Source: Euglena gracilis
Taxonomy: Eukaryota
Direction of reading: 5' to 3'
NCBI GenBank assembly: GCA_039621445.1
Contig: CP154954.1
Location: 38,301,703 to 38,365,702, forward strand
Length of the DNA: 64,000 nucleotides
Part shown: positions 1 to 64,000 of the stretch, piece by piece
How the letters are laid out: every line of letters begins with the position of its first letter
How positions within the stretch are numbered: position 1 is the stretch's first letter
Notes under the pieces: generated by a model
The model's input: only the letters and a program-made list of their open reading frames with translations
Told to the model about the DNA's origin: nothing
Database searches by the model: none
Translations under genes and position numbers: made by a program

Positions 1-1048
1 GGACACTCGGCCAAGGGGGGGGGTCCCTATTTTGCCATGCCGAGGGCGCCAAAGAAAATTTTCTTGGAAAACCCCCGCGCACCCCTCCCCCCCCCATCCG
101 GGACCCCCTCGCCACGCCAAAACCCCCCCCTGGCCGGACGGCTTGCCATGGCATGCCCACCCCCCGGGGGGTGGGCAGGGGGGCGGCCGCCCCCCCCTGA
201 GGTATTTTCGTCCTCCCCACCGAGGATTTTCTTGACTCAAAACTTTTTCACCCCCCTCCGAAAAAAAGTTACCCTCCAAAAAATTTTTGCAGTTTGTGAA
301 AAAATTCTTTCAGGCTCAGAACCCAACTTTTCATTGAATTTCCAAGTTTGTGCTGTTGGACATCGCTACTGTCTCGCCGCCCTTTGGGCGGACAAACAAG
401 CCCAAAACTAATGGGTTGGAGGGGGAAAAAGTCTTCCTTTTTTCGATTTGGGGTTGTTGTTTGTCAATATCTCCATTGCAGCACATGTATCTTGACTAGG
501 CTGGTAACGTTCAATTTTTAAGAGAGCAACCAATTTCTGTTGACAAATTTGCTCTTTTTGGGGAAGCTTTTTTGGGAAAATTGCACTACCGTCCAGCCGC
601 CCTTCAGGCGGAAATAGATTTTTTTTGTTCCATGCAAAATGCCTCAGAGGGGGCGGGTTTTGGGAAACAACCTCTTTTTTTTTTGCATTTTGTTCTCGTT
701 TGAAACCCCAAAGCACAAAAGGCAACACCGTCTTGCCGCCCGTTGGCGGCTTGAATGCTTCCAAATTGTGATGGATTTGTGCCATCATGTCAATAATTTA
801 CCACATTTTTTTGTCACGTTCAATGCCTTCTTTCAAAAAAAAGCACTACCGTCTCGCCGCCCTTCGGGCGGGAAAAAGAAAACAACACACACAATATTGG
901 TCACAGGGGTTTTTTTTAGTCGTGGACCCCTGAGGGGGGGGGTAGGGTGGGTGGGTCTCCCCCTCGGGGAGGTCCCCCCTGTGGGGAGTGGGATATGCTT
1001 TGGCGCCAAAAATTTTTGAAAAGGTGCTATGTTTGGAATTTTTCTGTT

Positions 1049-29347: not shown

Positions 29348-32300
29348 CTCCAGCACCACCTCCCTCCCGCCGCCGATCACTTGGTGACCGCCGGCGCCTC
29401 TCCCCTTCCTCAGCCACACAATTGCTCCGGACCAAAAACCACATCTTTGGTGAGAAAAGTCGGACAGAATCTCATTAAAATGTGGGGGAATCTCACAAAT
29501 TGTGAAGGAAAATGCCAACTGCAAAGACCTCCACCAGGGAAAATATCCATGATGAGCACCCCATGACGCAACCACCCGGGGCAATTTGGGCAAACCTGGA
29601 GTATTTCCCCTATTTGGAGCAATTGCATGCTGACAATTCCTCCCCGCCCCTCTCCCTCCTCTCCCCGCCGCCCTCCCCCTTCCACTCGCCCTCCCCATGC
29701 CGGCGCACAGGGTTGCATGGGAAGCTCCGCAGACATGAGGTAGTTGGCAGGGGAGGGTCACCCCCCCCGCCAGGGGGGTACGGTGGCGAGGGGGATCCAC
29801 CCCCCCCCAGTGTCAAAAGGAGGGTCCCCCCACCCCCCTCCCCCTCCTCCCCCTCCAAAAAAAATCTTCCGACGCTTCGCACTAAGTGTGCATTTTGGGA
29901 CTCTCTTGAGGCTCAGCATGAAATTTCGGCAAAATGGCCAAAAACGACGTCACTCGGGACAGGCGGGGAGTTGTGGGGAAATCAAAATACTGTTAGATGG
30001 GCCATTTTAAGGGCTGCAATTTTGTTCTCCGGACATTTCCTCTAATTCCCTGCCATTTTGAGAAATACCAGAAATTGATTTTTTGACCTCCCCAAAAAAC
30101 GGCCAAAATTTTCGACAACCGAAAACTGGGGGTTGGAGGCGGGGTCCTCCCAACCCCCCCCCCCATTTTGGAAGGATGCTGCCCCCACTCCCATCCCTCC
30201 TCCGAGATCCCATGCGGCCCTGCCGCCGCATCACCTGGTGATCGCCGGCCCGCCGCCCTCCCCCTTCGCCTCGCCTCGCCCTCCCCACGCCGGCACACAG
30301 GATTGCATGGGAAGTTTCGGAAGGAAGTCCGCAGACAGAGGTTGGTGGTAGCAACCCCCCCCGGGGGGGGGGCAAGCTGGCGGGGGGCCATTTCTGAGAA
30401 ATGCCCAAAAAGCTGATTTTTTTAACCCGGAAAATGGCCAAAAATTTCGGCAACCGAAAACTGGGGGTCGGAGGCGAGGACCCCCCCCCCAGCTTTGGAA
30501 GGGTGCTCCCCCCCACTCCCTCCTCCGAGATTCCCATGCGGCCCTGCCGCCGCATCACCTGGTGATCGCCGGCCCCGCCGCCCTCCCCCTTCGCCTCGTC
30601 GCCCTCCCCCTTCGCCTCGCCCTCCCCACGCCGGCACACAGGGTTGCATGGGAAGTTCCGCAGGCAGAGGTTGGTGGTAGCAACCCCCCCCCGGGGGGGG
30701 GCAAGGTGGCGGGGGGCCATTTCTGAGAAATGCCCAAAAAGCTGATTTTTTTAACCCGGAAAATGGCCAAAAATTTCGGCAACCGAAAACTGGGGGTCGG
30801 AGGCGAGGTCCTACCCCCCCCCCCCCCCAGCTTTGGAAGGGTGCTCCCCCCACTCCCTCCTCTGAGATTCCCATGCGACCCTGCCGCCGTATCACCTGGT
30901 GATCGCCGGCCCCCCCCCCCCCCCCCCTCGCCTCCTCCCCCCCACGCCGGCACACAGGGTTGCATGGGAAGTTCCGCAGACAGAGGTTGGTGGTAGCAAC
31001 CCCCCCCCCGGGGGGGGGCAAGGTGGCGGGGGGCCATTTCTGAGAAATGCCCAAAAAGCTGATTTTTTTAACCCGGAAAATGGCCAAAAATTTCGGCAAC
31101 CGAAAACTGGGGGTCGGAGGCGAGGTCCTACCCCCCCCCCCAGCTTTTGAAGGGTGCTCCCCCCCCACTCCCTCCTCTGAGATTCCCATGCGACCCTGCC
31201 GCCGTATCACCTGGTGATCGCCGGCCCCGCCGCCCTCCCCCTTCGCCTCGCCCTCCCCACGCCGGCACACAGGGTTGCATGGGAAGTTCCGCAGGCAGAG
31301 GTTGGTGGTAGCACCCCCCCCCCTGGGGGGGCAAGGTGGCGGGGGGCCATTTCTGAGAAATGCCCAAAAAGCTCATTTTTTTAACCCGGAAAATGGCCAA
31401 AAATTTCGGCAACCGAAAACTGGGGGTCGGAGGCGAGGTCCTCCCACCCCCCCCCCCAGCTTTGGAAGGGTGCTCCCCCCACTCCCTCCTCTGAGATTCC
31501 CATGCGACCCTGCCGCCGTATCACCTGGTGATCGCCGGCCCCGCCGCCCTCCCCCTTCGCCTCGTCGCCCTCCCCCTTCGCCTCGCCCTCCCCACGCCGG
31601 CACACAGGGTTGCATGGGAAGTTCCGCAGGCAGAGGTTGGTGGTAGCACCCCCCCCCCTGGGGGGGCAAGGTGGCGGGGGGCCATTTCTGAGAAATGCCC
31701 AAAAAGCTGATTTTTTTTAACCCGGAAAATGGCCAAAAATTTCGGCAACCGAAAACTGGGGGTCGGAGGCGAGGTCCTCCCCCCCCCCCCCCCCAGCTTT
31801 GGAAGGGTGCTCCCCCCCCACTCCCTCCTCCGAGATTCCCATGCGGCCCTGCCGCCGCATCACCTGGTGATCGCCGGCCCCGCCGCCCTCCCCCTTCGCC
31901 TCGCCATTCTCCCGGTGGCCCCCATCCTGGCCCTCCCGGCCCCCGCCCTGGCCCTCCCGGCCCCCGCCCTGGCCCTCCCGGCCCCCGCCCTGGCCCTCCC
32001 GGCCCCCGCCCTGGCCCTCCCGGCCCCCGCCCTGGCCCTCCCGGCCCCCGCCCTGGCCCTCCCGGCCCCCGCCCTGGCCCTCCCGGCCCCCGCCCTGGCC
32101 CTCCCGGCCCCCGCCCTGGCCCTCCCGGCCCCCGCCCTGGCCCTCCCGGCCCCCACCGTGTTGGCCCTCCCAGCGCCCACCCCGCTGGCCACACCATTGC
32201 TCAACGCCGGTCCTACCCCAACCGGGGGGCCGGGGGGGGGGGGTGGTGACCAACTGGTTTCTTCAGAGTGACTGACTGGTTTTTTGCCCCCCCCCAAGGG

Positions 32301-45500: not shown

Positions 45501-48500
45501 CGTGATTTTTTGGGGCCAGATTGCCTCAATGGCAGGAATTTGGGGGGTGCCAAAAGTGCGACCAGCCCCCGGGACCAGGTCGGCTGGGTTCCCCGCCCCC
45601 AAAAACCCCACTGTCACCGGAACCACTGCTGTTAAAACACCCCGCAATAGCGAAATTTTGGCCATTTTTAAGTGTAATTCGGGGCGGGGGCGGGGGGTGG
45701 GGGGGGGGGCGTGATTTTTTGGGGCCAGATTGCCTCAATGCCAGGAATTTGGGGGGTGCCAAAAAGTGCGACCAGGCCCCCGGGACCAGGCCAGCTGGGT
45801 TCCCCGCCCCCAAAAACCCCACTGTCACCGGAACCACTGCTGTTAAAACACCCCGCAATAGCGAAATTTTGGTAATTTTTAAGTGTATTTCAGGGCGGGG
45901 GACAGGATGGGGGGGGGGCGTGATTTTTTGGGGCCAGATTGCCTCACTGCCAGGAATTTGGGGGGTGCCAAAAAGTGCGACCAGCCCCCGGGACCAGGTC
46001 GGCTGGGTTCCCCACCGCCAAAAACCCCACTGTCACCGGAACCACTGCTGGTAAAACACCCCGCAAAAGCGAAATTTTGGTAATTTTTAAGTGTAATTCG
46101 GGGCGGGGGCGGGGGGTGGGGGGGCGTGATTTTTTGGGGCCAGATTGCCTCAATGCCAGGAATTTGGGGGGTGCCAAAAAGTGCGACCAGCCCCCGGGAC
46201 CAGGCCAGCTGGGTTCCCCGCCCCCAAAAACCCCACTGTCACCGGAACCACTGCTGTTAAAACACCCCAAAAGCGAAATTTTGGTAATTTTTAAGTGTAA
46301 TTCGGGGCGGGGGCGGGGGGTGGGGGGGCGTGATTTTTTGGGGCCAGATTGCCTCAATGCCAGGAATTTGGGGGGTGCCAAAAAGTGCGACCAGCCCCCG
46401 GGACCAGGCCAGCTGGGTTCCCCGCCCCCAAAAACCCCACTGTCACCGGAACCACTGCTGGTAAAACACCCCGCAATAGCGAAATTTTGGTAATTTTTAA
46501 GTGTAATACGGAGCGGGGGCGGGGGGTGGGGGGGGGCGTGATTTTTTGGGGCCAGATTGCCTCAATGGCAGGAATTTGGGGGGTGCCAAAAAGTGCGACC
46601 AGCCCCCGGGACCAGGTCGGCTGGGTTCCCCACCCCCAAAAACCCCACTGTCACCGGAACCACTGCTGGTAAAACACCCCGCAATAGCAAAATTTTGGCC
46701 ATTTTTAAGTGTAATTCGGGGCGGGGCCGGGAAGTGGAGGGGGGGCGTGATTTTTTGGGGCCAGATTGCCTCAATGCCAGGAATTTGGGGGGTGCCAAAA
46801 AGTGCGACCAGCCCCCGGGAGCAGGTCGGCTGGGTTCCCCACCCCCAAAAATCCCACTGTCACCGGAACCACTGCTGGTAAAGCACCCCGCAATAGCGAA
46901 ATTTTGGTTATTTTTAAGCGTAATTCGGGGCGGGGGCGGGGGGTGGAGGGGGCGTGATTTTTTGGGGCCAGATTGCCTCAATGCCAGGAATTTGGGGGGT
47001 GCCAAAAAGTGCGACCAGCCCCCGGGACCAGGTCGGCTGGGTTCCCCACCCCCAAAAACCCCACTGTCACCGGAACCACTGCTGGTAAAACACCCCGCAA
47101 TAGCGAAATTTTGGTAATATCTAAGTGTAATTCGGGGCGGGGGCGGGGGGTGGAGGGGGCGTGATTTTTCGGGGCCAGATTGCCTCAATGCCAGGAATTT
47201 GGGGGGTGCCAAAAAGTGCGACCAGCCCCCGGGACCAGGTCGGCTGGGTTCCCCACCCCCAAAAACCCCACTGTCACCGGAACCACTGCTGGTAAAACAC
47301 CCCGCAATAGCGAAATTTTGGTAATATCTAAGTGTAATTCGGGGCGGGGGCGGGGGGTGGAGGGGGCGTGATTTTTCGGGGCCAGATTGCCTCAATGCCA
47401 GGAATTTGGGGGGTGCCAAAAAGTGCGACCAGCCCCCGGGACCAGGTCGGCTGGGTTCCCCGCCCCCAAAAACCCCACTGTCACCGGAACCACTGCTGGT
47501 AAAACACCCCGCAATAGCGAAATTTTGGTTATTTTTAAGTGTAATTCGGGGCGGGGGCGGGGGGTGGAGGGGGCGTGATTTTTTGGGGCCAGATTGCCTC
47601 AATGCCAGGAATTTGGGGGGTGCCAAAAAGTGCGACCAGCCCCCGGGACCAGGTCGGCTGGGTTCCCCACCCCCAACCCCACTGTCACCGGAACCACTGC
47701 TGGTAAAACACCCCGCAATAGCGAAATTTTGGTAATATCTAAGTGTAATTCGGGGCGGGGGCGGGGGGTGGAGGGGGCGTGATTTTTCGGGGCCAGATTG
47801 CCTCAATGCCAGGAATTTGGGGGGTGCCAAAAAGTGCGACCAGCCCCCGGGACCAGGTCGGCTGGGTTCCCCGCCCCCAAAAACCCCACTGTCACCGGAA
47901 CCACTGCTGGTAAAACACCCCGCAATAGCGAAATTTTGGTAATTTTTAAGTGTAATTCGGGGCGGGGGCGGGGGGTGGGGGGGGCGTGATTTTTTGGGGC
48001 CAGATTGCCTCAATGCCAGGAATTTGGGGGGTGCCAAAAAGTGCGACCAGCCCCCGGGACCAGGTCGGCTGGGTTCCCCACCCCCAACCCCACTGTCACC
48101 GGAACCACTGCTGGTAAAACACCCCGCAATAGCGAAATTTTGGTAATTTTTAAGTGTAATTCGGGGCGGGGGCGGGGGGTGGAGGGGGCGTGATTTTTCG
48201 GGGCCAGATTGCCTCAATGCCAGGAATTTGGGGGGTGCCAAAAAGTGCGACCAGCCCCCGGGACCAGGTCGGCTGGGTTCCCCGCCCCCAAAAACCCCAC
48301 TGTCACCGGAACCACTGCTGGTAAAACACCCCGCAATAGCGAAATTTTGGTTATTTTTAAGTGTAATTCGGGGCGGGGGCGGGGGGGCGGGATGTTTTGG
48401 GGTCAGATTGCCTCAATGCCAGCAAGTTGGTGGGTGCCAAAAAGTGCGACCAGCCCCCAGGACCAGGTCGGCTGGGTTCCCCACCCCCAAAAACCCCACT

Positions 48501-51500
48501 GTCACCGGAACCACTGCTGGTAAAACACCCCGCAATAGCGAAATTTTGGTAATATCTAAGTGTAATTCGGGGCGGGGGCGGGGGGTGGAGGGGGCGTGAT
48601 TTTTCGGGGCCAGATTGCCTCAATGCCAGGAATTTGGGGGGTGCCAAAAAGTGCGACCAGCCCCCGGGACCAGGTCGGCTGGGTTCCCCGCCCCCAAAAA
48701 CCCCACTGTCACCGGAACCACTGCTGGTAAAACACCCCGCAATAGCGAAATTTTGGTAATTTTTAAGTGTAATTCGGGGCGGGGGCTGGGGGGGGGCGTG
48801 ATTTTTTGGGGCCAGATTCCCTCAATGCCAGGAATTTGGGGGGTGCCAAAAAGTGCGACCAGCCCCCGGGACCAGGTCGGCTGGGTTCCCCACCCCCAAA
48901 AACCCCACTGTCACCGGAACCACTGCTGGTAAAACACCCCGCAATAGCGAAATTTTGGCCATTTTTAAGTGTAATTCGGGGCGGGGGCGGGGGTGGGGGG
49001 GGGCGTGATTTTTTGGGGCCAGATTGCCTCAATGCCAGGAAATTGGGGGGTGCCAAAAAGTGCGACCAGCCCCCGGGACCAGGTCGGCTGGGTTCCCCGC
49101 CCCCAAAAACCCCACTGTCACCGGAACCACTGCTGGTAAAACACCCCACAATAGTGAAATTTTGGTAATTTTTAAGTGTAATTCGGGGCGGGGGTTGGGG
49201 GGGGGCGTGATTTTTTGGGGCCAGATTGCCTCAATGGCAGGAATTTGGGGGGTGCCAAAAGGTGCGACCAGCCCCCGGGACCAGGTCGGCTGGGTTCCCC
49301 GCCCCCAAAAACCCCACTGTCACCGGAACCACTGCTGGTAAAACACCCCGCAATAGCGAAATTTTAGTAGTTTTTAAGTGTAATTCGGGGCGGGTGGGGG
49401 GGGCGTGATTTTTGGGGGCCAGATTGCCTCAATGCCAGGAATTTGGGGGGTGCCAAAAGGTGCGACCAGCCCCCGGGACCAGGTCGGCTGGGTTCCCCGC
49501 CCCCAAAAACCCCACTGTCACCGGAACCACTGCTGTTAAAACACCCCGCAATAGCGAAATTTTGGTAATTTTTAAGTGTAATTCGGGGCGGGGGGTGGGG
49601 GGGGGCGTGATTTTTTGGGGCCAGATTGCCTCAATGGCAGGAATTTGGGGGGTGCCAAAAAGTGCGACCAGCCCCCGGGACCAGGTCGGCTGGGTTCCCC
49701 GCCCCCAAAAACCCCACTGTCACCGGAACCACTGCTGTTAAAACACCCCGCAATAGCGAAATTTTGGCCATTTTTAAGTGTAATTCGGGGCGGGGGCGGG
49801 GGGTGGGGGGGGGCGTGATTTTTTGGGGCCAGATTGCCTCAATGCCAGGAATTTGGGGGGTGCCAAAAAGTGCGACCAGGCCCCCGGGACCAGGCCAGCT
49901 GGGTTCCCCACCCCCAAAAACCCCACTGTCACCGGAACCACTGCTGTTAAAACACCCCGCAATAGCGAAATTTTGGTAATTTTTAAGTGTAATTCGGGGC
50001 GGGGGCGGGGGGTGGGGGGGCGTGATTTTTTGGGGCCAGATTGCCTCAATGCCAGGAATTTGGGGGGTGCCAAAAAGTGCGACCAGCCCCCGGGACCAGG
50101 TCGGCTGGGTTCCCCACCGCCAAAAACCCCACTGTCACCGGAACCACTGCTGGTAAAACACCCCGCAAAAGCGAAATTTTGGTAATTTTTAAGTGTAATT
50201 CGGGGCGGGGGCGTGGGGTGGGGGGGCGTGATTTTTTGGGGCCAGATTGCCTCAATGCCAGGAATTTGGGGGGTGCCAAAAAGTGCGACCAGCCCCCGGG
50301 ACCAGGTCGGCTGGGTTCCCCGCCCCCAAAAACCCCACTGTCACCGGAACCACTGCTGTTAAAACACCCCGCAATAGCGAAATTTTGGTAATTTTTAAGT
50401 GTAATTCGGGGCGGGGGCGGGGGGTGGGGGGGGCGTGATTTTTTTGGGGCCAGATTGCCTCAATGCCAGGAATTTGGGGGGTGCCAAAAAGTGCGACCAG
50501 CCCCCGGGACCAGGTCGGCTGGGTTCCCCACCGCCAAAAACCCCACTGTCACCGGAACCACTGCTGGTAAAACACCCCGCAATAGCGAAATTTTGGTAAT
50601 TTTTAAGTGTAATTCGGGGCGGGGGCGGGGGGTGGGGGGGGCGTGATTTTTTGGGGCCAGATTGCCTCAATGCCAGGAATTTGGGGGTGCCAAAAAGTGC
50701 GACCAGCCCCCGGGACCAGGTCGGCTGGGTTCCCCACCCCCAAAAACCCCACTGTCACCGGAACCACTGCTGGTAAAACACCCCGCAATAGCGAAATTTT
50801 GGTTATTTTTAAGTGTAATTCGGGGCGGGGGCGGGGGGTGGAGGGGGCGTGATTTTTTGGGGCCAGATTGCCTCAATGCCAGGAATTTGGGGGGTGCCAA
50901 AAAGTGCGACCAGCCCCCAGGACCAGGTCGGCTGGGTTCCCCACCCCCAAAAACCCCACTGTCACCGGAACCACTGCTGGTAAAACACCCCGCAATAGCG
51001 AAATTTTGGCCATTTTTAAGTGTAATTCGGGGCGGGGGCGGGGGGTGGAGGGGGCGTGATTTTTTGGGGCCAGATTGCCTCAATGCCAGGAATTTGGGGG
51101 GTGCCAAAAAGTGCGACCAGCCCCCAGGACCAGGTCGGCTGGGTTCCCCACCCCCAAAAACCCCACTGTCACCGGAACCACTGCTGGTAAAACACCCCGC
51201 AATAGCGAAATTTTGGTAATTTTTAAGTGTAATTCGGGGCGGGGGCGGGGGGTGGGGGGGCGTGATTTTTTGGGGCCAGATTGCCTCAATGCCAGGAATT
51301 TGGGGGGTGCCAAAAAGTGCGACCAGCCCCCGGGACCAGGTCGGCTGGGTTCCCCACCCCCAAAAACCCCACTGTCACCGGAACCACTGCTGGTAAAACA
51401 CCCCGCAATAGCGAAATTTTGGTAATTTTTAAGTGTAATTCGGGGCGGGGGCGGGGGGTGGGGGGGGAGTTGGGGGGGGTGTGATTTTTTGGGGCCAGAT

Positions 51501-53480
51501 TGCCTCAATGCCAGGAATTTGGGGGGTGCCAAAAAGTGCGACCAGCCCCCGGGACCAGGTCGGCTGGGTTCCCCACCCCCAAAAACCCCACTGTCACCGG
51601 AACCACTGCTGGTAAAACACCCCGCAATAGCGAAATTTTGGTAATTTTTAAGTGTAATTCGGGGCGGGGGCGGGGGTGGGGGGGGCGTGATTTTTTGGGG
51701 CCAGATTGCCTCAATGCCAGGAAATTGGGGGGTGCCAAAAAGTGCGACCAGCCCCCGGGACCAGGTCGGCTGGGTTCCCCGCCCCCAAAAACCCCACTGT
51801 CACCGGAACCACTGCTGGTAAAACACCCCGCAATAGCGAAATTTTGGTAATTTTTAAGTGTAATTCGGGGCGGGGGCGGGTGGGGGGGGCGTGATTTTTG
51901 GGGGCCAGATTGCCTCAATGCCAGGAATTAGGGGGGTGGCAAAAAGTGCGACCAGCCCCCGGGACCAGGTCGGCTGGGTTCCCCGCCCCCAAAAACCCCA
52001 CTGTCACCGGAACCACTGCTGGTAAAACACCCCGCAATAGTGAAATTTTGGTAATTTTTAAGTGTAATTCGGGGCGGGGGGTGGGGGGGGGCGTGATTTT
52101 TTGGGGCCAGATTGCCTCAATGGCAGGAATTTGGGGGGTGCCAAAAGGTGCGACCAGCCCCCGGGACCAGGTCGGGTGGGTTCCCCGCCCCCAAAAACCC
52201 CACTGTCACCGGAACCACTGCTGGTAAAACACCCCGCAATAGCGAAATTTTAGTAGTTTTTAAGTGTAATTCGGGGCGGGTGGGGGGGGCGTGATTTTTG
52301 GGGGCCAGATTGCCTCAATGCCAGGAATTAGGGGGGTGCCAAAAAGTGCGACCAGCCCCCGCTACCAGGTCGGCTGGGTTCCCCACCTCCAAAAACCCCA
52401 CTGTCACTGGAACCACTGCTGGTAAAACACCCCGCAATAGCGAAATTTTGGTAATTTTTAAGTGTAATACGGAGCGGGGGCGGGGGGTGGGGGGGGCGTG
52501 ATTTTTTGGGGCCAGATTGCCTCAATGCCAGGAAATTGGGGGGTGCCCAAAAGTGCGACCAGCCCCCGGGAGCAGGTCGGCTGGGTTCCCCGCCCCCAAA
52601 AACCCCACTGTCACCGGAACCACTGCCGGCAAAACACCGATGGTAAAACACCCCCGCAATAGCGAAATTTTGGTTATTTTTAAGTGTAATTCGGGGCGGG
52701 GGGGGGGGGGGGGTGGGGGGGGTGATTTTTCGGGGCCAGATTGCCTCAATGCCACGAAATTGGGGGGTGCCAAAAAGTGCGACCAGCCCCCGGGACCAGG
52801 TCGGCTGGGTTCCCCACCCCCAAAAACCCCACTGTCTCCGGAACCACTGCTGGTAAAACACCCCGCAATAGCGAAATTTTGGCCATTTTTCAGTATAATT
52901 CGGGGCGGGGGCGGGGGGTGGGGGGGCGTGATTTTTTGGGGCCAGATTGCCTCAATGGCAGGAATTTGGGGGGTGCCAAAAAGTGCGACCAGCCCCCGGG
53001 ACCAGGTCGGCTGGGTTCCCCACCCCCAAAAACCCCACTGTCACCGGAACCACTGCTGGTAAAACACCCCGCAATAGCGAAATTTTGGCCATTTTTCAGT
53101 ATAATTCGGGGCGGGGGCGGGGGGTGGGGGGGGCGTGATTTTTTGGGGCCAGATTGCCTCAATGGCAGGAATTTGGGGGGTGCCAAAGAGTGCGACCAGC
53201 CCCCGGGACCAGGTCGGCTGGGTTCCCCGCCCCCAAAAACCCCACTGTCACCGGAACCACTGAGGGTAAAACACCCCGCAATTGTGTAAGTTTGGCCATT
53301 TTTCAGTATAATTCGGGGCGGGGGGGTGGGGGGGGCGTGAGTTTTTGGGAATTGGGGGGTGCCAAAAAGTGCGACCGTGCCCCCGGGACCAGGTCAGCTG
53401 GGTTCCCCACCCCCATTGTCACCGGTAAAACACCTTACAATAGGGATTTTTGACAGTTTTTCAGTATAATTCGGGGTGGG
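33560..53480. repeat. Satellite of about 207-bp units, roughly 95 copies, G-run rich, inside a predicted GT-AG intron (33471-53867)
   Basis: Unit gggccagattgcctcaatgccaggaattt...taattcggggcgggggcgggggg repeated head to tail; degenerate at both edges. Confidence 0.95.
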
Positions 53481-53867
53481 GGTTCGGGGCAGGCTTCTTT
53501 TTAATTCACCTGACCCCCCCCTCCCCCGGGGGAGGGGGGTGGGTGGGTGGGTCTGGGCCGGACCCCCTGGGGGGTGGGGGGTCTGCGCCGGGTGTACGTT
53601 TTTGGCGCAAAGCGCCGAAAAACGTTGACAATTGCCTTTAACGCGCCTGATTTTGGGGGAGGGATCCCCGCCCCCCGGGGGGTCCACCCTGGGGACCCCC
53701 TTTCCCCCGGGGGGTCATAAAAAGAAGCCTGTTGGGGGGCGCGTGTTTTTTCGGGGCAGATTCAAAAAGTGCGACCAGCCTCCGGGACCAGTTCAGCTGC
53801 GTGCTTCTCAGCGTGCGTGTGGGAAAGCCTTCGTGCTCTGCCACCATCTCAATCCAAATCTCCACAG

Positions 53868-56800
53868 GTCCCGCCACCCGCCGCCTACGTCGCCCCCGCC
53901 GTGCTCCTGCAGGAAGCGGACGAGAAGGCAGCGGAGCACGAGCGGGATCGCCACGCAGGCCCCGGTGGCCAGGAAAATATGGGCCATCAAAGAAATACCA
54001 GGGGTGCACACAATCATTTGCCCCCCTGTGCTTTCGCGACTCCGCTATGACCCCCCTCCCGTCACAGACACAGCGTCCTGGCGCAAAGCATAAGGCCGAA
54101 AACCCTTGGACCCAAAAGTGGCCAAAAATCAGCCAAAAATTTTTTGGGCAAAGAATTGCCGAAATTTCACAAAAGGGTTTCCCGCACCTCACCCCCGCCT
54201 TTGCAGTCTCTTCACCAATCCAGGGGGGATCACTGACTGGGTTTTGTCCCTGTCCACCTCCCTCCAGAAGCAGTCATCGCAAAGGTGACCCGGCCGCATA
54301 TTATTTCTGCCATTTTTTCCCCGTTCCAGATTCCAGAGCACCTGACCCCGGGGGGGGGGGACTGGCTGGATTTCCAAACTGCCTGGTTCTTGGTGACTGC
54401 CTGGTTTTCGGAAGAGTGGACCCCTGGGGGAGGGGTCGGCCGATGGTTGCCCACCCCTCTGTCCTCTTCTCCTCCGGGGTGGGAGGTTGGACAGGGGTGA
54501 GAATATTTTTCCCTGGCATTGGATTCTTGAAGCCCCCTCCCCTCATTTGGCAGTTTTACATTACTCTGCGGGGGGTCGACCCCCCCCCCCCATACTTGAA
54601 TAACACCCCCCCTCTCCGGGGCCGATTTCGAGCGCCCAAATATCACCCCCCTAATTTCTTTTGGTTTTCCATGTAAAAATAACACCCCCCCCCAAATTAC
54701 CCCCCCCCCCCGGGGCCCAGGGTGCCCAAGTAACACAAGGGGGGGGGTGTTATTTGGGGGGGGGGTTATTTGGATGGCAGCCATATTCTAAATGGCCCCC
54801 CTGGTCACTCTAAATGGCCCCCCCTGGCATTTTTTCGTTAATGATGGAGTAGGTTTAGGTGCGCGACTTAGGCTTAGGGTTAGGCCTAACTTGTACACCG
54901 AACACCCATCTATAAGTTAGGCCTAACCCTAAGCCTAAGTCGCGCACCTAACCCTACTCCATCATTAACACAAAAAAACTATTTTGACCCCCCTGGTCAC
55001 TCTAAATGGCCCCCCAGGGGGGGGCATTTAGAGTATGGCTGCCATTTGGATATCCAGGGTAGGGTGTGTACATTGCGGCCGTGTCTTGCTTGTGTCTGCT
55101 TCATGGCCAGGGTGGGGGATCATCATCCCAAAACCCGGCGTTTGTTCGGATTCCACGCGTGGTGCTTTCATTCTGCAGTTTCTGTTTATCACAAACCCCC
55201 CCGGAAAGTGCCACCAGCAGCCACCACCACATCTGCATCTGTCCCAAAATCAGAAAAATGGGTTTTTTTTGCGCCAAACCAGAAATTTTTTTCAGCACAA
55301 AACTCCCATGGTTTTTAAAGAAGGTCAATGGCTTCCCCCCAGAGGTTTTTGTTCTGAGGGTCCCACACCACGCAGAGGCGTTGGAAAGACGCCTGCATTG
55401 CAATTGTGGTGAAGCCCCCCCCCATCAGTCCAGCACGGCCTGGGGGCAACACCAGCTCCATCCGCCCCAAAACTTGCTGGCCCGCGCGCGCCGCGCTGCC
55501 AACCCACTGCGTGGGATTCGGCAGCTGCTTGAGCAGGCGGTTTTTTTTTGTGGTGTTTATCGAAACAACAAAACAAAACAAACAAAAAGCAGCCTGCCGC
55601 CGAATATTGGTGGCTAATCGAGACCCCCGCGGAGAGGACAACCAGGGCAGAACGGGAGGCCAACCACACCACCGTATTTCCGGGAACACCAATTTTCGAC
55701 CCCAAAGTTTTTTTCCGGCGCCAAAGGGGCGGGGAAAAAATTGTCATGTACGTTATCTAATAAGGTCTATCAATGTTATCTGATAAGAAATCTGTGAAAT
55801 TGCCGTGGTGGGGTGGGGGGTCAAACACCCGCCTCCCGGGTGGACCAGGCCTTCCCGTTCTGCCCTGGGGACGGCGAAGGAGATCCAGGTCCGCCACGCG
55901 GTGGCGGACCCGGACCTCTGTGCCCGCTGCCGCCCACGCCCTTCCTTAAATGTGTGCCCTTCTGTTAAATGTGCGTTGTGGTGACCCAGACAGTGCAAAG
56001 ATAATTTAATTACAAATATCTGTCAGAAGTGCCATTTTCGGTTGGAAGGAAACTGACTTTTGGGGACGGGGGATTTCCGTGGGGGGGGGAAGCCCCCCCC
56101 CACCCCTGCTTGTCAAGGACCTCATTCCCATGCATGTTAACACAATGACAAAGTAACGAAGGGCGTGGGGCCACCACCGTCGGCTGGGGATGGTGCAGGC
56201 GGAGGTCGCCGGGCGCAGCGTGCCACTGTGCCCTGCCTGCCGCTTCGCCACGGTGTGTTCTGCCTTGCCCTTTGCTTCTTCCGAATCTCTTTTCATTTTC
56301 ATTGTGCACCCCTGTCCCCTGGAATTCTGGATTCAACCTGGACAGTTCTCTTCAAAAGCCACCTGTGGGGGACAGGGGTTTTTTTGGTCGTGGACCCCGG
56401 GGGCAGGGTTCGATATAAGGAGGGCGTACATGGTTTAGGTGGGGGGTGTCCCCCCCACCCCCCCCCCTCCTGGCCCGCAGGGGGGGGTCAGGACCACCCC
56501 CCCCCCACCTGCAAGGGGGGTCCGGACCGACCCTCGGGGGGGGGTACCCGGGACCCCCCCCCCAAAAAGGGGCAATTTTTTCCTCCGGCGCTTTGCGCCG
56601 AATTTTTTTTTGCATTTTTGGCCAATTTTTGCCCAAAAAGTGCCCAAAATGGCACTTTTGGTCGTCTTGGGGGGTCAAAAATTTTCGGCCCGGCGCTTTG
56701 CGCTGGGCCGAAAATCGGTCACCCTGACCGCGCCACTGTTTAGGTGGGGGGGTGTCCCCCCCACCCCCCCCCCCCTCCTGGCCCGCAGGGGGGGGGGCCG

Positions 56801-59404
56801 GACCCCCCCCCCCTCCTCTCCTTATATCGAACCCTGCCCGGTGGGGGGGGGTTGGGAAGGGTTTGATATAAGGAGGCGTACATGGTTCAGGTGGGGGGGT
56901 GTCCCCCCCCCTCCTGGCCTGCAGGGGGGTCCGGACCACCCCCCCCTCCTCTCCTTATATCGAACCCTGGGGTAGGGTGGGTGGGTCCAGCCGAGCCCCC
57001 CCCCCCCCGGGGGGGTCCCACCGGAGGGGGGTGGGATATGCTTTTCGGCGCTGAAGGCGCCGAAAGTGCTATTTTTAGCACTTTCATGGTGTCCAGGCCC
57101 AGTGCTAACTCAGAAGACCCCGTGCCACGGGACTGTGTGGAGGTCGGTGCGTTTGGGGTTTGTCCGGGTTCCAAATGGATCGGGGGTGTGCTGGATCTTC
57201 ACTCAACTGGCAGTAACAAAGTGTCAAGCGTTAGTTTTAGCAAGGGGAGGGAAGGCAAGGGGAACGCAAATGTTTTTTTTGCATTATTTGTGTTTTTCTA
57301 TTTTGATAAAATTTGTGTTTTTATGTCTGTTGTTGTTGTTGTTGTTATTGTTGTTGTTGCATTTTGTTTTTTTTTCCGTCCCGATTTTCTAGTTTCAAAA
57401 AGGGTTTGGGCAAAGGTAAGGGTCAAGGTCTTTTTGACAATGAAAAATTGCTCGTTTTGCCCTCGATTTTCCCCCGAGACCAAAAATTCTGTCGACCTTT
57501 TGTCATTTGCCCGATGGAGAAGTTTTTCCCCTGTGTTGAGTGAACAGTGGTCTTGCGGGAGGGGGGGGTGCGGGGAAAGAGTGGTTAGACCCCCCGGGGG
57601 GAGGGTGGGTCCAGACCCCCCCTTCAGACCGAGGGGTCTGGGACCCCCGGAAACCCAGAAAGAATAAAAAATGGGTGGTGCATTGTTTGGCTGATTTTTC
57701 AAAAAAAATATGTGCGAAAACTCGATTTTTTGGTTTTTTTCGTTGCCAGAAATTTTTTTGCACAATCCAACCCCCCCCAACACTCATTTAATACCCTGCC
57801 CGAGGGATGGGGGCAGGCTTCTTTTTAAGTCAGCAGACCCCCCCGGGGGGGGGAGGGAGGGTGGGTGCCAGACATTTATTCAGTGTGGTATACCAACGTT
57901 GTCATTTTGTGGTTCACCGTGGACACCGAGAGTTTTTTTGTGGTTCACCTGTTGACACCAAAAAAGAATTTGTGGTTCACACATCTTTTGTGAGCCACAC
58001 TAAATGAATGTCTGGTGGGTGGGGGGGTCCGGGGCCGGACCCCCCGGGGGGTGGGTCCCGCGCCGGGTATACCTTTTCGGCGCGAAGCACCGAAAATTTT
58101 TGAAAATTGCCTTTAACGGGCCCGATTTTGGGGTCCCCCCCGGGGTCCCGCGCCACCCTGGGTGGGTGGGGGACCCCCCTGGATGGGGGTCCGGACCCTC
58201 CCAGGCTGTGTTTCAGATTTACAACCTCAAATGCCCCTGCCTCTCACAGTTCGAGAGCGCGCTGCTGGCGCGTGAGGCAGCGAGGGAACGACCGCCCCGC
58301 GCACCGCGAACGGTATGTCATTGCTTGCGCCCCACATCCGCCTGATCTTTGCTCACGTCTCCACAAATTTCTCCGGAATGAATTAAAAAAACTGATAAAA
58401 TTCAAAAGAAGACAGATTTGGTGAAATGCAGCTTTCTAAAGGCGATAACAATGGCGAGGGATGCACATGGGTTTCTGTTTGATTCTTTGCAATGCGCACC
58501 CCCCGGGGGGGGGGGCTATTGGCAGGCAGGGGTAGGGCATTTTCGACCCCTCTGGAGGGGAGTCGGGGTTTGGGGTGGGTTGGCGCCACAGCACACCCCC
58601 TGACGCCGAATGGCCCAAAAATGGCCTCCAAAAAATGACCTGGCTGGTAGGCTCCGAGAGGCACAATACCCCCCCCCCCCAGGTTGATGAAAAGAAGCCT
58701 GATCCTCTGACGTTGCCCCCCAAATGTTTTGCATTTTGTGGGTTGACTCGCAGAACATCGTACATTTTTTTACCGCATTGGTTGCCATGACAGAATTTCG
58801 CTCATATTCTCTAAACATGCGGCTGGTGCTGGTGCCCCCCATGTCCATTGCTGCACAGGGGACATTTTCGCTCTGGAGGGGAGTCGGGGTTGGGGTGGGT
58901 TGGCGCCACCACCCCCCCCCCCGAATGGCCCCTCCCAAAAAACCTCCAATCCCCCCCCCCCCCAAACCCCCTGACGTTGCCCCCCAAATGTTTTGCATTT
59001 TGGGTTGACTCGCAGAACAAACACCCACCCCCCCCAAAATTATCAAAAAACCACTTCCCCTCTCACGCCCCCCTGCTGCTCGCCCCCATCGTCGCCGCGG
59101 GCTGGACGCACAGGGCCGAGTGGCGTCGGCATTTGGGGTCAGAGAAACGGGAAGGTGAAATTTGGGAGCACAACCCGGAGTGGAGCCGGCTTCCTGGGTC
59201 AGGTTTGAATTACTGCCAGCGTTGCGTTTCACTCCCATTCAGAGGAATTTGGCTGAAACATTGTAAGCCTGGTTTTTTTTTTTTGTTCTTGGGGGTTAGA
59301 TTGGTGCTGTTGACCCCCAGCCAAATCGAGTCAACATGTTTTGTTGAGATGTTGAATATTTTCCTTTTTTCATCATCATCATCATCGTCATCATCATTAT
59401 TGTC

Positions 59405-59439
<35 letters not shown>

Positions 59440-59478
59440 CATCATCATCATCATCATCATCATCATTATTATTGTTGC

Positions 59479-59532
<54 letters not shown>

Positions 59533-59593
59533 TGCTATTATTATCATTATCATCATCATCATCATTATTCTTATTCTTATTCTTCTTCTTCTT

Positions 59594-59624
<31 letters not shown>

Positions 59625-59769
59625 TTATCATCATCATCATCATCATCATCATTATTATTATTATTACCATCATCATCATCATCATCATTATTATTATTAC
59701 CATCATCATCATCATCATCATCATTATTATTATTACCATCATCATCATCATCATCATTATTATTATTAC

Positions 59770-59806
<37 letters not shown>

Positions 59807-62273
59807 GTCATCATCATCATCATCAGGTGCATTGACCTACCAATGGGCCCTGCTGTTGATCCTGCCGACCACCGACAGCCGCCTGGCCAACGCGCTGGCA
59901 TGGCTGGCCAGGGTTGTATGGGAAGCTCCGCAGACATGACGCAGGTGGCAGGGGGTCCCCCCCTAGGGGGGTAAGGTGGCAGGGGGGTCCCCCCACCCCC
60001 GTCCCCCCGGTTTCGGAAGGGGGTCCCCCACCCACCCCCCTCCCCCTCCTCTGCAGGGGCAAATAAAAATCTTCCGGTGTGCATTTTTGGACCCTCTTGA
60101 AGCTCGATATGAAATTTTGGCAAAACGGCCAAAATTGGTCGAAAAATGGCTGTAACTTGGGCCAGGAGGGGAGTTGAGGGGAAATCAAAATGGCATTTCA
60201 AGGCTTCAATTTAGGTATCTGACATTTTGTCCACCATTTTTGAGGAATTTCAGAAGAATTGATGTTTTTGACCCAAACAGGGCCAAATTTTTCGGCGACT
60301 GAATACTGGAGGTAGGGGGGTCCCCCCTCCCCCCCCCCCTCCCCCCCCCCCCAGTTTTGGAAGGGGAGCCCCCCCCCCTCGAGATTCCCATACAAGCCTG
60401 CGGCTGGCGGTGGTCTCCACGTACAGCTCGCTGTACGTGGACTGCCTGCGGCCGCGGCTGCGGTGGGTCGCCGGGCTGTACCCGTGCACCGCAAGCGGGG
60501 GGCCCTTTGCGGTTGCATTTCAAGGGGCGGAGGGTTGCCTTCAAGTTCATTCGCAAACCCCCAACGGATTTGTCTCTCATCCAAATCCAACCTCCCCCCC
60601 CCCCCCCCCCTGGCAGAGGGCCCTCCGCCGCCAGCCGTCGCCGCCATCGTCCATGCCATCGACCGCCGCCTGCGCGAACAAGTCGAGGGCAACGGCTACG
60701 GCGGGCCACACCCTGGCTCACCCCCCCCCCCCCGTTGGCTTGGCTTGGGGTCTCCCTGGTCCCTCCCCAGGGATGGATTGGAAGCATTTTGGTTTGAAGG
60801 TGGGTGAGGGGGCCCCTTCCTGGAGGTTGGGGGGGTCCGGACCCCCCCTGCTTTATGACAAAAATATTTCTTTTGGCGCGCCGGAAAATGAACAAAAATG
60901 CCCCTTTTCCTCACTTTTGAGCATATTGCGCATTTTTGGGGTGCTTTCCGCAGCTAAAGTGTTCACAATTTTCAAGGAATTCATTTTCAAAGAAAAATCA
61001 AGGGATTTTCAACAATTTTGGTCTGGCCTCCAAGACACTCTGGACCCCCCCCCCCGGTTGGTAAAAAGCAGCCTGGTCCCCTCCCTCCCCCTGTCCCCTT
61101 TGAACCGGGGCGTGGCGGCACAACGCCGCCTACGCCGCCCTCCGCATGGCCCACACGTGGGCCATCATGGTGGGCGCCGTGGGCGACCTCGCCGTCCACG
61201 CCCTGCTGCTGGGGCCAGGCCTGTCCCCCCCTTTTTTCTATGGGCGGATGAGCGATGTTCCAAAAGTGCCAGGAATCACTTTTTTTCCCGAAGTCGACCC
61301 GTTTCGGGCAAAATACGGCCACTTTTCGGTCATGGATTTTCAAAAAAATTTCTCGGCTGTGCCGGGACGGGATTTTTTTTTTTTTTTTTTTTGCTTAAGG
61401 ACCGCCCTGGGTCCAACGGATGCCTCTCGGCTCACAATTTGAAGAAAGTTCTCCAAAGTTCTCCAAACCTCCCGGGCCGTTTGTTTCCCACCCCCACCCC
61501 AAGTGGGTTCCCGGGGGGGCCGGCCTGCGGCCAAGTGCCCGCCCCCTTCATCAACCCCACCACGCCCCTCCAGCGGTGGAGGGACGCGCAGCCGCCGCCG
61601 CCGCCCGGGCCCGTGGCGAAGGCGAAGGCGGTGGTGCGGGAGATCCGGCGCCGGCTGTGGCCTGCCGGGCAGGCCCTTCCTGAAGGGCACCCGCCCCTCC
61701 CCCTGCCTTTCTGCATTGCAAGTCCCACGCAGACAATCACTCACTGATCGGTATCCCATCCCGACCAGGTTTTTTTCAGCTTTGGACCTCCTGGGGGGGG
61801 GGGGGGGGAGGGGGGGGGGGGTCCAGCCAAGCCCCCCATGGGGGGGGGTCCCCCCAGGGGGAGTGGGATGCCCTTTTCGGCGCTGAAGGTGCCGAAATTT
61901 TTTGAAAAAGGTGCTTTTTTAGCATTTTTCGCGATTTTTCGGCCATTTTCGGTGGGTCCCCTGGGACCCCCCTGGGGTGGGTGGGGAGATTGACTGGTTT
62001 TTTGGGTGGATGTGACCCCTGGGATCAGTGTAAAGAACTTTGTGCAGTCCCCCCCTCAACACGGTCTCTTTGAAGAAGCGACAGGGTGCCAAGCCCCCCT
62101 CTTCTGGTGCAAATCCCAGGCACCCCTCCCCCGCCATCTTTGGCAACGGCCTGTCGCTGCCCGGCCTGCGGAGCCGCCTGCGCCGCCAGCCGCGCCGGCT
62201 GTCGCGCCAGCTGCGCTGCCAGCCGAGCTGCCGGCCGCGCCGGCCGCTGAAGCAGCAGCGGTGGCGCAACCCC
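53868..62273 (+). CDS. Multi-exon 3' part of the same unknown gene (CxxC...CxxC motif, hydrophobic segments, Pro/Ala-rich tail); runs on beyond the last exon identified
   Basis: Predicted exons 53868-53966, 54258-54284, 55456-55530, 55602-55639, 55873-55931, 56173-56252, 57114-57146, 58250-58312, about 59070-59107, 59858-59905, 60406-60492, 60618-about 60703, about 61108-61212, 61533-61666, 62159-62273. They join to VPPPAAYVAPAVLLQEADEKAAEHERDRHAGPG-LPPEAVIAK-LHPPQNLLARARRAANPLRGIRQLL-EYWWLIETPAERT-AKEIQVRHAVADPDLCARCH-HRRLGMVQAEVAGRSVPLCPACRFAT-KTPCHGTVWRS-FESALLAREAARERPPRAPRT...WTILPTTDSRLANALAWLAVVSTYSSLYVDCLRPRLRWVAGLYPCTAGPPPPAVAAIVHAIDRRLREQ...; GC3-rich codons. Junctions near 58313-59080 and 60703-61108 are unresolved. 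Confidence 0.7.
54784..55036. mobile_element. Palindromic MITE with a telomere-like internal hairpin
   Basis: TIR t(a)ttctaaatggccccc / ggggcatttagagta; arms gttaatgatggagtagg...ttagggttaggcctaactt / aagttaggcctaaccctaag...cctactccatcattaac. Confidence 0.75.
56404..56836. mobile_element. hAT-like MITE (TIR cagggttcgatataagg); related copies at about 56859-56969 and from 63886
   Basis: TIR ccttatatcgaaccctg at the right end; TSD cccggggg/cccggtgg. Confidence 0.75.
59371..59825. repeat. Compound trinucleotide microsatellite (CAT/TAT/CTT)n
   Basis: Direct reading; lies inside the predicted intron 59108-59857. Confidence 0.95.
59909..60400 (+). mobile_element. hAT-like MITE in coding sequence, forming predicted intron 59906-60405
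   Basis: TIR cagggttgtatgggaa...ttcccatacaagcctg; TSD tggctggc/cggctggc; same family as 29708-30222; removal restores ...ALAWLAVVSTY. Confidence 0.85.
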
Positions 62274-64000
62274 AGCCAGGGCACATAAAACATGGCACAC
62301 CAAGCGCACAACAAAATACAATTTCTTTCCAGGGGTTTTTTTCATCGTGGACTCCAGGGGGGGGGGGTAGGGTGGGTGGGTGGGGCCCCGGGACCCGGGG
62401 GGGGGGGCCCGCCGGAGGGGGCTGGGATGTACTTTTCAGCGCTTTTGGCGCAGAAATTTTTTGAAAAAGTGCTATTTTTTTAGCACTTTTCGCGATTTTC
62501 GGCCATTTTTTTTGTGGGTCCCCCGACCCCCCCCCCCCAGGGAGGCCCCTCCAGGGGTTGGTGGGCGGGGGACCTCCCCCCGGTCTTAAGAAAAACCCCT
62601 GCTCCTTTCTAAATGAATGGGGAACAGGGAATTTCTTAAGGGCCCCCCCGGGGGGGTCCAGCCCAGACAATTGCTTAAGCACTGTCCCACCCCCCCCCCC
62701 CCGGGGGGGGGGGTGACTGGTTTTTTCAGAGTGACTGACTGGTTTTGGGCCCGGACCCCCTCCCCCCCGGGGGGGGTCGGCCAGGAGTGGGCAAAAGTGG
62801 CTTGAGTGACCCCAGCGCCGAAGGCGCCGGAAAATTTTTTTTGACCTAAAATGGCCTAAAGTGACTGGAAAGTGGCCGTTTTTCTGAGTGGCCGACCCCC
62901 CCCGGGGGGGGGGGGTAGTGACTGGCTGGTTTTTTGAAAATGAGTGACTGACTGGTTTTTAAAAAAGTGGAGTGACCCCCTCCCCCCCCCCCCCCCCCCC
63001 GGGGGTCGGTAAGCAATTGTATGGTCCAGCCTCCGGCTGGCAAAAAAGGCTGCTGGCTGGATTTGAGCTGCTGGCTGGAACGACCCCCCCCCCGGGGGGG
63101 GGGGGGGGGGTGGGGGGTCCGGGACTGGAGGGGACTGGGCTGGGCTGGGTCGAGGAAAAACAAAATTTTCTAACACATTTTTGTCATTTTAGACGTTTTG
63201 ATGGGTGGAGCTAGATCAAGGCTGGGGGGCTGTGATGGAGGGCTGTGATGAGGAGAAAAAAAGCAAGGATAAGTGAGCTGGGCAGCCCAGTTGGCTGGCC
63301 CGCCTGCGGTTGGCTGGCCCGGCCTCCAGTTGGGCTGGACCCAGTTTTATTTTACTCGACCCCCAGGAGGGGGGCTCCCAGCCCGAATTTGGGCTGCTGG
63401 CTGGATTTGAGCTGCTGGCTGGCTGGACCCCCCCCCCCCGCGGGGGGTAGGGTACCCTCCGGCTTACAAAATTCCCTGATGGGGAAGGAGCAAAAAAAAA
63501 GACATTCAATGCATAACACATCCCATCTGGGGCTGGGGTTGAAAATCCATTTTTTCACTGAGGGCTTTCCAAAAGAGTTGCCAGAGCCCCCTGCTTCCCT
63601 GTCCAGGAAGTTTCTTCGCGTGAGTGATGAAGAATACTCGAAAACCAATGAAATTTTTACACGCAAAGTGAAAATTCAGCTCAAAAAACAAGAGAATGTT
63701 TTTTTGGAGATAATTAAGCATGGGGCGGTGTCTCTTTGGCTCGGGGCGGCTCACGGTTTTGATTTTTTTCCTCCTCGCCAGTGAACGTTTTTTGAGCCCG
63801 CCCAGCTTTGGCTTTGGTGGGGGATTGGCAATTTTCAGGTTGGGGCGCAGCTTAAGAAAATTTGATCCCATGGGGGGTTCCAGCCCAGGGTTCGATATAA
63901 GGAGGGCGCCCAGGGTTCAGGTGGGGGGTGTCCCCCCCCACCCCCCTCCTGGACCACCCTGCCAAGGGGGTCCGGACCAACCCTGGGGGGTTCCGGACCC

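Follow-up and report, generated by a model that had tools for sequence, protein, structure and literature searches.

In a 64,000-nucleotide stretch of the Euglena gracilis genome (assembly GCA_039621445.1, contig CP154954.1, positions 38,301,703 to 38,365,702 of the forward strand; called the window below, with position 1 as its first letter), a 492-bp MITE (miniature inverted-repeat transposable element) lies between the two copies of an 8-bp target-site duplication (TSD) in coding-like sequence. This element has probably inserted in a coding exon, and it would be removable from the transcript, together with one copy of the TSD, by the nonconventional splicing of euglenids. Of the interpretation offered by an earlier, sequence-only reading of this DNA, the MITE family, the 8-bp TSD, the coding-phase signal and the fit to the splice code stand, whereas removal from the transcript and the hAT superfamily, together with transcription of the locus and cleavage at the 3/5 positions, are what we infer.

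Structure of the element and of its insertion site

The size of the element, its CAG start and CTG end and its coordinates (Table 1) were all borne out. Comparison of the left arm, CAGGGTTGTATGGGAA, with the reverse complement of the right arm, CAGGCTTGTATGGGAA, gave 15 identities in 16 positions, hence an imperfect terminal inverted repeat (TIR), which a repeat search extended to 20 nt with 18/20 (90%) matching. The 8-bp TSD reported in the sequence-only reading is also present, TGGCTGGC and CGGCTGGC being identical at seven of eight positions. The single mismatch does lie in the part that would be intronic: it is position 1 of the duplication, and with cuts 3 nt before and 5 nt after the element the right-hand copy of this position (60401) would be removed. 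The interior shows no periodicity, with GC at 101/164, 86/164 and 91/164 of the three codon positions, and the open reading frames (ORFs) covering the element gave no match in Pfam. All the features that define a MITE (short, non-coding, with TIRs and a TSD) are found here, at 492 bp, 15/16 and 7/8, and the element is confirmed as a genuine MITE with an 8-bp duplication in coding-like sequence.

Coding context

The exon-like pieces on the two sides of the element, E1 and E2 (Table 1), carry a GC-rich phase that moves across it from positions 2 mod 3 to positions 1 mod 3 (codon start from 0 to 2 mod 3). Since 500 mod 3 is 2, this shift fits the removal of 500 nt, that is, of the element plus one duplication, and not the removal of 492. 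Farther downstream, the exon-like pieces 61104-61212 and 61535-61645 have G or C at 36/36 and 37/37 of their third codon positions (GC3), and a strict periodicity filter retained 12 segments in the whole 64-kb window, one of them a microsatellite and five of them, these two pieces included, inside 59.8-62.3 kb. This composition provides good evidence for a gene on the + strand consisting of small exons parted by CAG...CTG-type introns.

Some further properties of these exon pieces were recorded. E1 lies directly 3' of an imperfect (TCA)n microsatellite (59370-59825, ~150 units), which ends 1-2 nt before it at ...tcatcag|GT and through which the E1 frame remains open; this tract either codes for Ser/Leu or forms the tail of an intron whose acceptor is AG. 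The piece 61104-61212 aligns to its own reverse complement (74% over 100 columns), probably because its codon sets are closed under reverse complementation. The exon sequence near the insertion is also rich in inverted repeats: a 16-nt pair, 59867-59882 and 60400-60415 (94% complementary), relates the upstream exon to the right duplication and the first 10 exon bases, and directly downstream, at 60416-60441, lies a perfect palindrome of 12 nt with a 2-nt loop. In the restored exon the insertion target would sit in the 3' arm of a hairpin, and these repeats could reflect chance in a period-3, GC-biased sequence, a target preference or RNA structure.

Fit to the nonconventional splicing code

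According to the available text of PMC12501133, in which the code was defined by knock-ins, nonconventional introns have the form 5'-N3-CDG...CH'G-N5-6|R(exon); the CAG/CTG bases are essential, base pairing must continue inward from the motif, the 5' spacer is strictly 3 nt, the 3' spacer is best at 5 nt (6 is tolerated; 4, 7 and 8 are poor), and a purine is preferred as the first exon base. In E. agilis, the same text finds 84.4% of introns flanked at their junctions by direct repeats and names them "slidable". The junction rules of PMC4770533 state that a pyrimidine (Y) ends the exon and the intron and a purine (R) starts the intron and the exon. The CAG/CTG ends and Y|R junctions given in the sequence-only reading as the euglenid code are supported by both sources.

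Cuts at 59905|59906 and 60405|60406 would remove 500 nt and join the open frames 58815..59939 and 60272..61747 in the predicted reading ..A-W-L|A-V-V.., so the earlier claim that a 3/5 cut takes away one TSD equivalent and restores W-L-A-V holds in length and in phase. The predicted intron, 59906-60405, begins with GG and ends with CT and is not bordered by GT/GC-AG. Its CAG occupies positions +4..+6 (59909-59911) and its CTG positions -8..-6 (60398-60400), the spacers would be GGC (N3) and CGGCT (N5), and the downstream exon would begin with GGC, the third base being C. T|G would stand at both junctions (T 59905, G 59906, T 60405, G 60406), which, together with the C at the third exon base, matches rules (i)-(iii) of PMC4770533. 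Counted inward from CAG and CTG, 18 of 20 positions pair, and the stem is formed in both the minimum free energy (MFE) and the centroid folds; the folding z-score of the whole intron, -0.38, is uninformative, and only the terminal stem matters. With cuts at the predicted 3/5 positions, the sequence would have everything that the published cis requirements of euglenid nonconventional splicing call for.

Two other ideas were tried and rejected. A reading on the minus strand would have the downstream exon begin with C, against the purine rule, and the antisense frame of 61095-61226 has a stop. A G5TC5 palindrome considered as a genome-wide signature gave six matches, four of them inside the element, and a count of six was reached by 4/100 shuffles, which is not significant.

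Family copies and other CAG...CTG elements in the window

The element belongs to a family with the terminus CAGGGTTG.ATGGGAAG. A second full-length copy was found in the window at 29708-30222, flanked by CCGGCGCA on the left and CCGCCGCA on the right (7/8), along with five short copies (30298-30546, 30639-30883, 30955-31198, 31270-31512 and 31605-31851; flanks 5-6/8), whose BLAST matches correspond to the 3' part of the element in an array extending to 31855. The termini and subterminal regions are conserved in the family alignment, the five short copies being internal-deletion derivatives. Since these tandem derivatives are duplicates of one another, they were excluded from the count of independent insertions, and two insertion sites of the family remain in the window, 59909 and 29708, each with its own duplication.

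For a broader survey, the window was scanned for CAG...CTG inverted repeats of at least 12/14 complementarity at a spacing of 40-4000 bp, which yielded 87 raw pairs; a low-complexity filter left 70 of these, and the removal of duplicates 26. Flank identity of at least 6/8 (at least 75%) in the 8-bp register was found for six of the 26; in other registers the same repeats gave one case at 7 bp, one at 9 bp and none at 10 or 11 bp. With the satellites masked, flanks of at least 6/8 accompanied 6/25 CAG-terminated repeats versus 31/1446 repeats with the other 63 terminal trinucleotides (odds ratio 14, Fisher p = 2e-5). Chance was modelled with 60 order-2 Markov sequences built from the 30,541 non-satellite bases; they contained a mean of 0.10 pairs with flanks of at least 6/8 per sequence, and a CAG..CTG pair with a TIR of at least 13/14 and a flank of at least 7/8 occurred in only one of the 60. 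The real window goes beyond this chance level.

The elements 62625-63478, 57869-58014, 56404-56836 and 62330-62601 (Table 1) belong to families unrelated to that of element 59909-60400. For the second of them, an uninterrupted paralogue (53490-53731) of the surrounding copy has a compatible single target site, which lies in a short GGGT run where the duplication is not cleanly resolved; for the third, more copies begin at ~56858 and at 63886. The window holds a population of CAG...CTG TIR transposons that make 8-bp duplications, and element 59909-60400 is one member of it.

Table 1 Features of the 64-kb E. gracilis window that bear on element 59909-60400 and on the CAG...CTG population
Feature	Position	Strand	Basis and remarks
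MITE (non-autonomous TIR element)	59909..60400	+	492 bp; sequence reading and scripted check
Left TSD copy, TGGCTGGC	59901..59908	+	7/8 match to right copy
Right TSD copy, CGGCTGGC	60401..60408	+	Sequence reading and scripted check
Left TIR, CAGGG start	59909..59928	+	20 nt, 90% complementary to 60381-60400
Right TIR, CCTG end	60381..60400	+	Paired with left arm in MFE and centroid folds
Predicted nonconventional intron, 500 nt	59906..60405	+	GGC spacer, element and CGGCT spacer; N3-CAG...CTG-N5|R of PMC12501133, 3/5 cuts inferred
Putative upstream exon piece E1	59826..59905	+	GC by codon position 16/27, 14/27, 22/26; frame of ORF 58815..59939; single-copy in window
Putative downstream exon piece E2	60406..60492	+	First base G; GC by codon position 18/29, 17/29, 29/29; frame of ORF 60272..61747
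Candidate second nonconventional intron, CGG...CTG type, 125 nt	60493..60617	+	N3/N5 joins 60492|60618 in frame, joined reading open; weaker than the others
Predicted nonconventional intron around TIR element 61216-61527	61213..61532	+	TIR 12/14; N3/N5 joins 61212|61533
Second full-length family copy, 515 bp	29708..30222	+	70.5% identity over 485 columns (BLAST of locus versus window)
Five internally deleted family copies, 243-249 bp	30298..31851	+	~320-bp tandem array with short spacers; BLAST and alignment
Unrelated CAG...CTG element, 854 bp	62625..63478	+	Perfect 8-bp duplication ATGGGGAA; AT-rich, non-coding-looking flanks
CAG...CTG element, 146 bp	57869..58014	+	Flanks GTGGGTGC / GTGGGTGG, 7/8; nested in other-family copy 57814-58133
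CAG...CTG element, 433 bp, 19-bp TIR	56404..56836	+	Flanks CCCGGGGG / CCCGGTGG, 7/8
CAG...CTG element, 272 bp	62330..62601	+	Flanks TTTCTTTC / CTCCTTTC, 6/8

Proposed mechanism

The following course of events would account for these features. A non-autonomous cut-and-paste transposon of the CAG...CTG population would duplicate 8 bp of its target on insertion, and the copy at 59909-60400 would have inserted in a coding exon of the + strand gene. Its termini and terminal stem would serve as the cis signal recognised by the nonconventional splicing of euglenids, so that cuts placed 3 nt ahead of CAG and 5 nt beyond CTG would remove the element and 8 nt, equal to one duplication, and the mRNA would be brought back to its pre-insertion sequence, which would render the insertion silent. 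If the duplication is written as t1..t8, both cuts would fall between t5 and t6; of the left copy the exon would retain t1-t5, and of the right copy t6-t8, and the intron would take away t6-t8 as N3 and t1-t5 as N5. That the message would then be identical with the uninterrupted target is arithmetic once the duplication is 8 bp and the spacers are the published 3 and 5 nt.

With the same dinucleotide t5|t6 at both junctions, the mirrored Y|R pattern and the purine at intron +1 would arise from a single requirement, the one on exon +1. The intronic halves of the TSD would be free to drift, and old introns would accordingly lose the repeat, with which the flank identities of 0/8 and 3/8 at the neighbouring elements discussed below (61216-61527 and 60493-60617) are compatible. 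In both duplications from coding context, TGGCTGGC and CCGSCGCA, t5 is Y and t6 is R, a combination absent on the + strand from all four duplicated elements with non-coding flanks; on these tiny numbers, what the Y|R pattern resembles is a filter for insertions that can be spliced, not a preference of the transposase. Nonconventional introns are released as circles (review PMC11282704), and cuts made at a constant distance from a helix base, combined with circular release, would suit a ruler-type endonuclease and a ligase, not the spliceosome, an idea already present in the literature.

A wider proposal can be made, tentatively, as it seems possible but falls somewhat short of probable: that the 3/5 ruler of the splicing machinery is co-adapted to transposons with 8-bp duplications, so that every exonic insertion with a purine at TSD base six could be spliced out scarlessly from birth. 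The mirrored Y|R junctions with the purine at intron +1, the slidable repeats and the 8-nt repeat at a new intron would then be fossils of the duplication or filters on it, and most nonconventional introns, ~70% of all E. agilis introns, would come from hAT-like MITEs.

Superfamily assignment

In the available text of PMC3014272, the hallmarks of hAT elements are 8-bp duplications and YARNG termini, and a target of the type nT....An appears as a tendency in the hAT table. The hAT-like label of the sequence-only reading finds support in the 8-bp duplication (7/8 here and 7/8 at copy 29708-30222, with enrichment of the 8-bp register) and in the left end, CAGGG, which fits YARNG; the short TIR (16-20 bp), the small non-coding interior and the internal-deletion derivatives also resemble the non-autonomous hAT elements of that source. 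Other features speak against the label. The right terminus, as reverse complement, reads CAGGC and is not YARNG; the target is not nT....An, TGGCTGGC having G at positions 2 and 7, and among the six duplicated elements only ATGGGGAA fits this type. A Pfam scan of 114 of the 192 window ORFs of at least 120 aa (the other 78 all lie within the two satellite arrays) revealed no transposase, so the autonomous hAT transposase envisaged as a partner sharing the TIR was not found among them.

A different superfamily with 8-bp duplications, Merlin or a P-like group, would leave the rest of the explanation as it is. Two Merlin families, both with 8-bp duplications, are described for E. gracilis in the available text of PMC8101967, no report of hAT in Euglena was found in the literature searched, and the lack of a hAT transposase in the window points the same way. 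Nevertheless, this assignment appears rather unlikely: Merlin TIRs have a conserved terminal 5'-GG-3' according to the same text, whereas element 59909-60400 and the eight other aligned elements have CAG/CTG ends, all nine starting with CAG, and it is the hAT superfamily that combines 8-bp duplications with a terminus fitted by CAGGG. hAT is therefore the best guess for element 59909-60400, with about an even chance of being right.

Alternative explanations

Several observations weigh against a spliceable insertion in a functional gene. Protein searches with 40-aa and 44-aa stretches of two putative exons found no homolog, which is a weak negative, and the Pfam scan gave no relevant domain; because of these two results the gene is anonymous and possibly dead. 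E1 lacks a start codon, the search for a link from the third putative exon to the fourth gave no acceptable candidate, and the link from the fifth to the sixth is ambiguous, so the gene model is incomplete and a full version was abandoned. The window is, moreover, dominated by satellites. Around the element there are 20 in-frame, stop-free GC-AG alternatives by which conventional removal would be possible, none of which restores the target; no in-frame GT donor occurs among the stop-free alternatives. Finally, the duplication and the GC3 phase demand that the spacer lengths a and b sum to 8, and the sequence fixes only this sum, not the 3/5 split, eight of the nine possible splits giving an identical peptide. 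Of the earlier claim that the +4/-6 offset is the 3+5 split of a TSD, the arithmetic holds and would make removal scarless, but the split itself is not set by the locus.

The anonymity of the gene, its incomplete model and the satellite-rich surroundings would all suit a genuine MITE that lies unspliced in a gene that is dead, in a pseudogene fragment or in a fortuitous frame and owes its fit to the code to its CAG...CTG ends only, since any CAG...CTG element fits most of the code wherever it lands. We consider this unlikely: GC3 values of 29/29, 36/36 and 37/37 in neighbouring exon pieces are hard to explain without recent coding constraint, removal of the element plus 8 nt restores frame and phase precisely, and the downstream purine and the Y|R junctions are found at element 59909-60400 and at the other coding-like copy but not at the four non-coding duplicated elements (+ strand). 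Less easily dismissed, though still the less probable view, is that the sum 3+5 = 8 is a coincidence, the ruler being set by structural needs of the cleavage machinery, with no causal part for the duplication length, and most nonconventional introns having come from something other than elements with 8-bp duplications. A 3' spacer of 6 nt is tolerated too (available text of PMC12501133), the authors of 2016 put the 8-nt repeat of a new intron down to the repair of double-strand breaks (PMC4770533), and two of the three predicted nonconventional introns of the gene (61216-61527 and 60493-60617) are without a duplication. Yet the strict 3-nt 5' spacer and the optimal 5-nt 3' spacer are the only pair that is scarless for an 8-bp duplication, direct repeats stand at most E. 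agilis junctions, as cited above, and mirrored junction rules are what a duplication cut twice at the same internal position predicts.

Break repair, or another non-transposon mode of intron gain, as the source of the 8-bp repeat at this locus has the precedent of the interpretation given to the newly gained gapC intron (PMC4770533), and is very improbable here: the family is present at a second locus, where the 8-bp flanks differ; 8-bp repeats, one of them perfect, also flank CAG...CTG elements of unrelated families in non-coding DNA; one element is nested in another repeat; and the enrichment is confined to CAG termini and the 8-bp register. Insertion of a MITE in a coding exon, with removal by nonconventional splicing, is the explanation that we favour.

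Neighbouring predicted introns

Two further nonconventional introns were predicted in the same gene (Table 1). The join 61212|61533 would read G|AA and then GTG, in phase with the exons of GC3 36/36 and 37/37, and the downstream exon would begin with A. The flank identity is 0/8 at TIR element 61216-61527, however, and 3/8 by hand count at candidate intron 60493-60617, which shows no clear duplication; both values weigh against insertion with an 8-bp duplication as the general rule, and the role of MITEs as general intron generators proposed in the sequence-only reading is not supported within this gene.

Tandem arrays and satellites

In the region 30223-31905, a family copy with a short flank has been amplified in ~320-bp units (335-bp period and 4.1 copies by the program TRF), with spacers that read ..HLVIAGPAALPLRLALPTP.., and a 21-bp x 11.3 repeat (31917-32154) follows it. 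After N3/N5 trimming the spacers measure 67, 84, 63, 63 and 84 nt, four of the five being multiples of 3. The array (30.2-31.9 kb) was considered as a second clear exonic case and rejected as only suggestive, as the 67-nt spacer breaks the frame, the copies are mutually duplicated and GC3 is like GC at the first codon position (GC1). It is possibly a Pro/Ala/Leu-rich repetitive coding region with a duplicated exon-intron unit, in which one spacer breaks the frame. Elsewhere, an array of 34/78/112/192-bp units (2437-4198) contains a perfect 14-nt inverted-repeat partner, CAGTTGAGCAACAC, many times over; these CAG...CTG inverted repeats lack an 8-bp flank repeat and are not of the duplicated-element kind.

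Almost a third of the window is taken up by a 207-bp satellite (33565-53349; 95.5 copies, 92% match), and satellites of 71/88/96-bp units with a very strong GC skew (~+0.57) and GGGTTAGG-like motifs occupy 11855-23052. ORFs across the latter gave weak Pfam matches to DUF5409, one of them at 29 bits (cut-off 25), which are most likely artefacts of repeat translation. Rfam and tRNA scans of the window gave 0 matches each.

Relation to known systems and previous work

A MITE-like origin of nonconventional introns was proposed in 2014 (PMC3935182) and repeated in 2016, 2024 and 2025, so the remark in the sequence-only reading that a transposon origin had been suggested before is correct. TIRs at +4..6/-8..-6 and "TSD-like" junction repeats were described in the 2024 review (PMC11282704), and eight-nucleotide direct repeats, attributed to break repair, were found at the junctions of the newly gained nonconventional intron of E. 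agilis gapC (PMC4770533); we count the latter repeat as independent support from the literature for the preferred explanation. In 2025 the origin of these introns was still called unclear in the available text of PMC12501133. The MITE origin, the TSD-like repeats, the 8-nt repeat at a new intron and the 3/5 spacers have thus each been published already. In their available texts, the MITE-origin proposals name no family, duplication length or superfamily, and an explicit statement that 3+5 = 8 equals one duplication, of the length of the TSD or of hAT was not found in the literature searched, in which subscription journals are thinly covered, so that it may exist in print.

The predicted intron shares with the known euglenid nonconventional introns (Milanowski et al. 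2014, 2016; Nomura et al. 2025, PMC12501133) the lack of GT-AG, the CAG/CTG positions, the paired ends, the 3/5 spacers as predicted, the purine, the Y|R junctions and the junction repeats; it differs in belonging to a multi-copy TIR family with a near-intact 8-bp duplication and sister copies. The introners of Micromonas and Aureococcus (Huff, Zilberman and Roy 2016; via the available texts of PMC7789003 and PMC11282704) are likewise TIR DNA transposons that sit with a target duplication in exons and are removed from RNA without a scar, but they use canonical spliceosomal sites, whereas the code here, predicted from sequence, is the non-spliceosomal one of CAG/CTG plus stem. Amoebophrya introners have inverted repeats of 8-20 nt and boundary direct repeats of 3-5 nt (available text of PMC7789003), in contrast to the 8 bp, split 3+5, proposed here. 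GT-AG borders derived in part from the duplication, the mark of spliceosomal introners, were not found at element 59909-60400, where no in-frame GT donor and only the 20 GC-AG combinations exist. In maize, removal of the hAT element Dissociation from transcripts uses spliceosomal sites and is usually imprecise. Giroux et al. (1994) reportedly described this element as spliced as a de novo intron, which would be a precedent for the removal of a hAT-type element.

In our judgement the locus is a good testable lead and an unusually clean case of a hypothesised kind, not a new kind of system. It touches on two open questions: how the nonconventional introns of euglenids arose, and what logic underlies their splice code. 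It provides a tangible family, its ends intact and its 8-bp duplication nearly so, exonic and in the register of the code, which makes the MITE-origin hypothesis testable genome-wide in E. gracilis and E. agilis, and it offers one explanation for the 3/5 spacers, the mirrored Y|R junctions, the slidable introns and the repeat of 8 nt found where an intron is new. If true, this explanation would show how such transposons become harmless introns.

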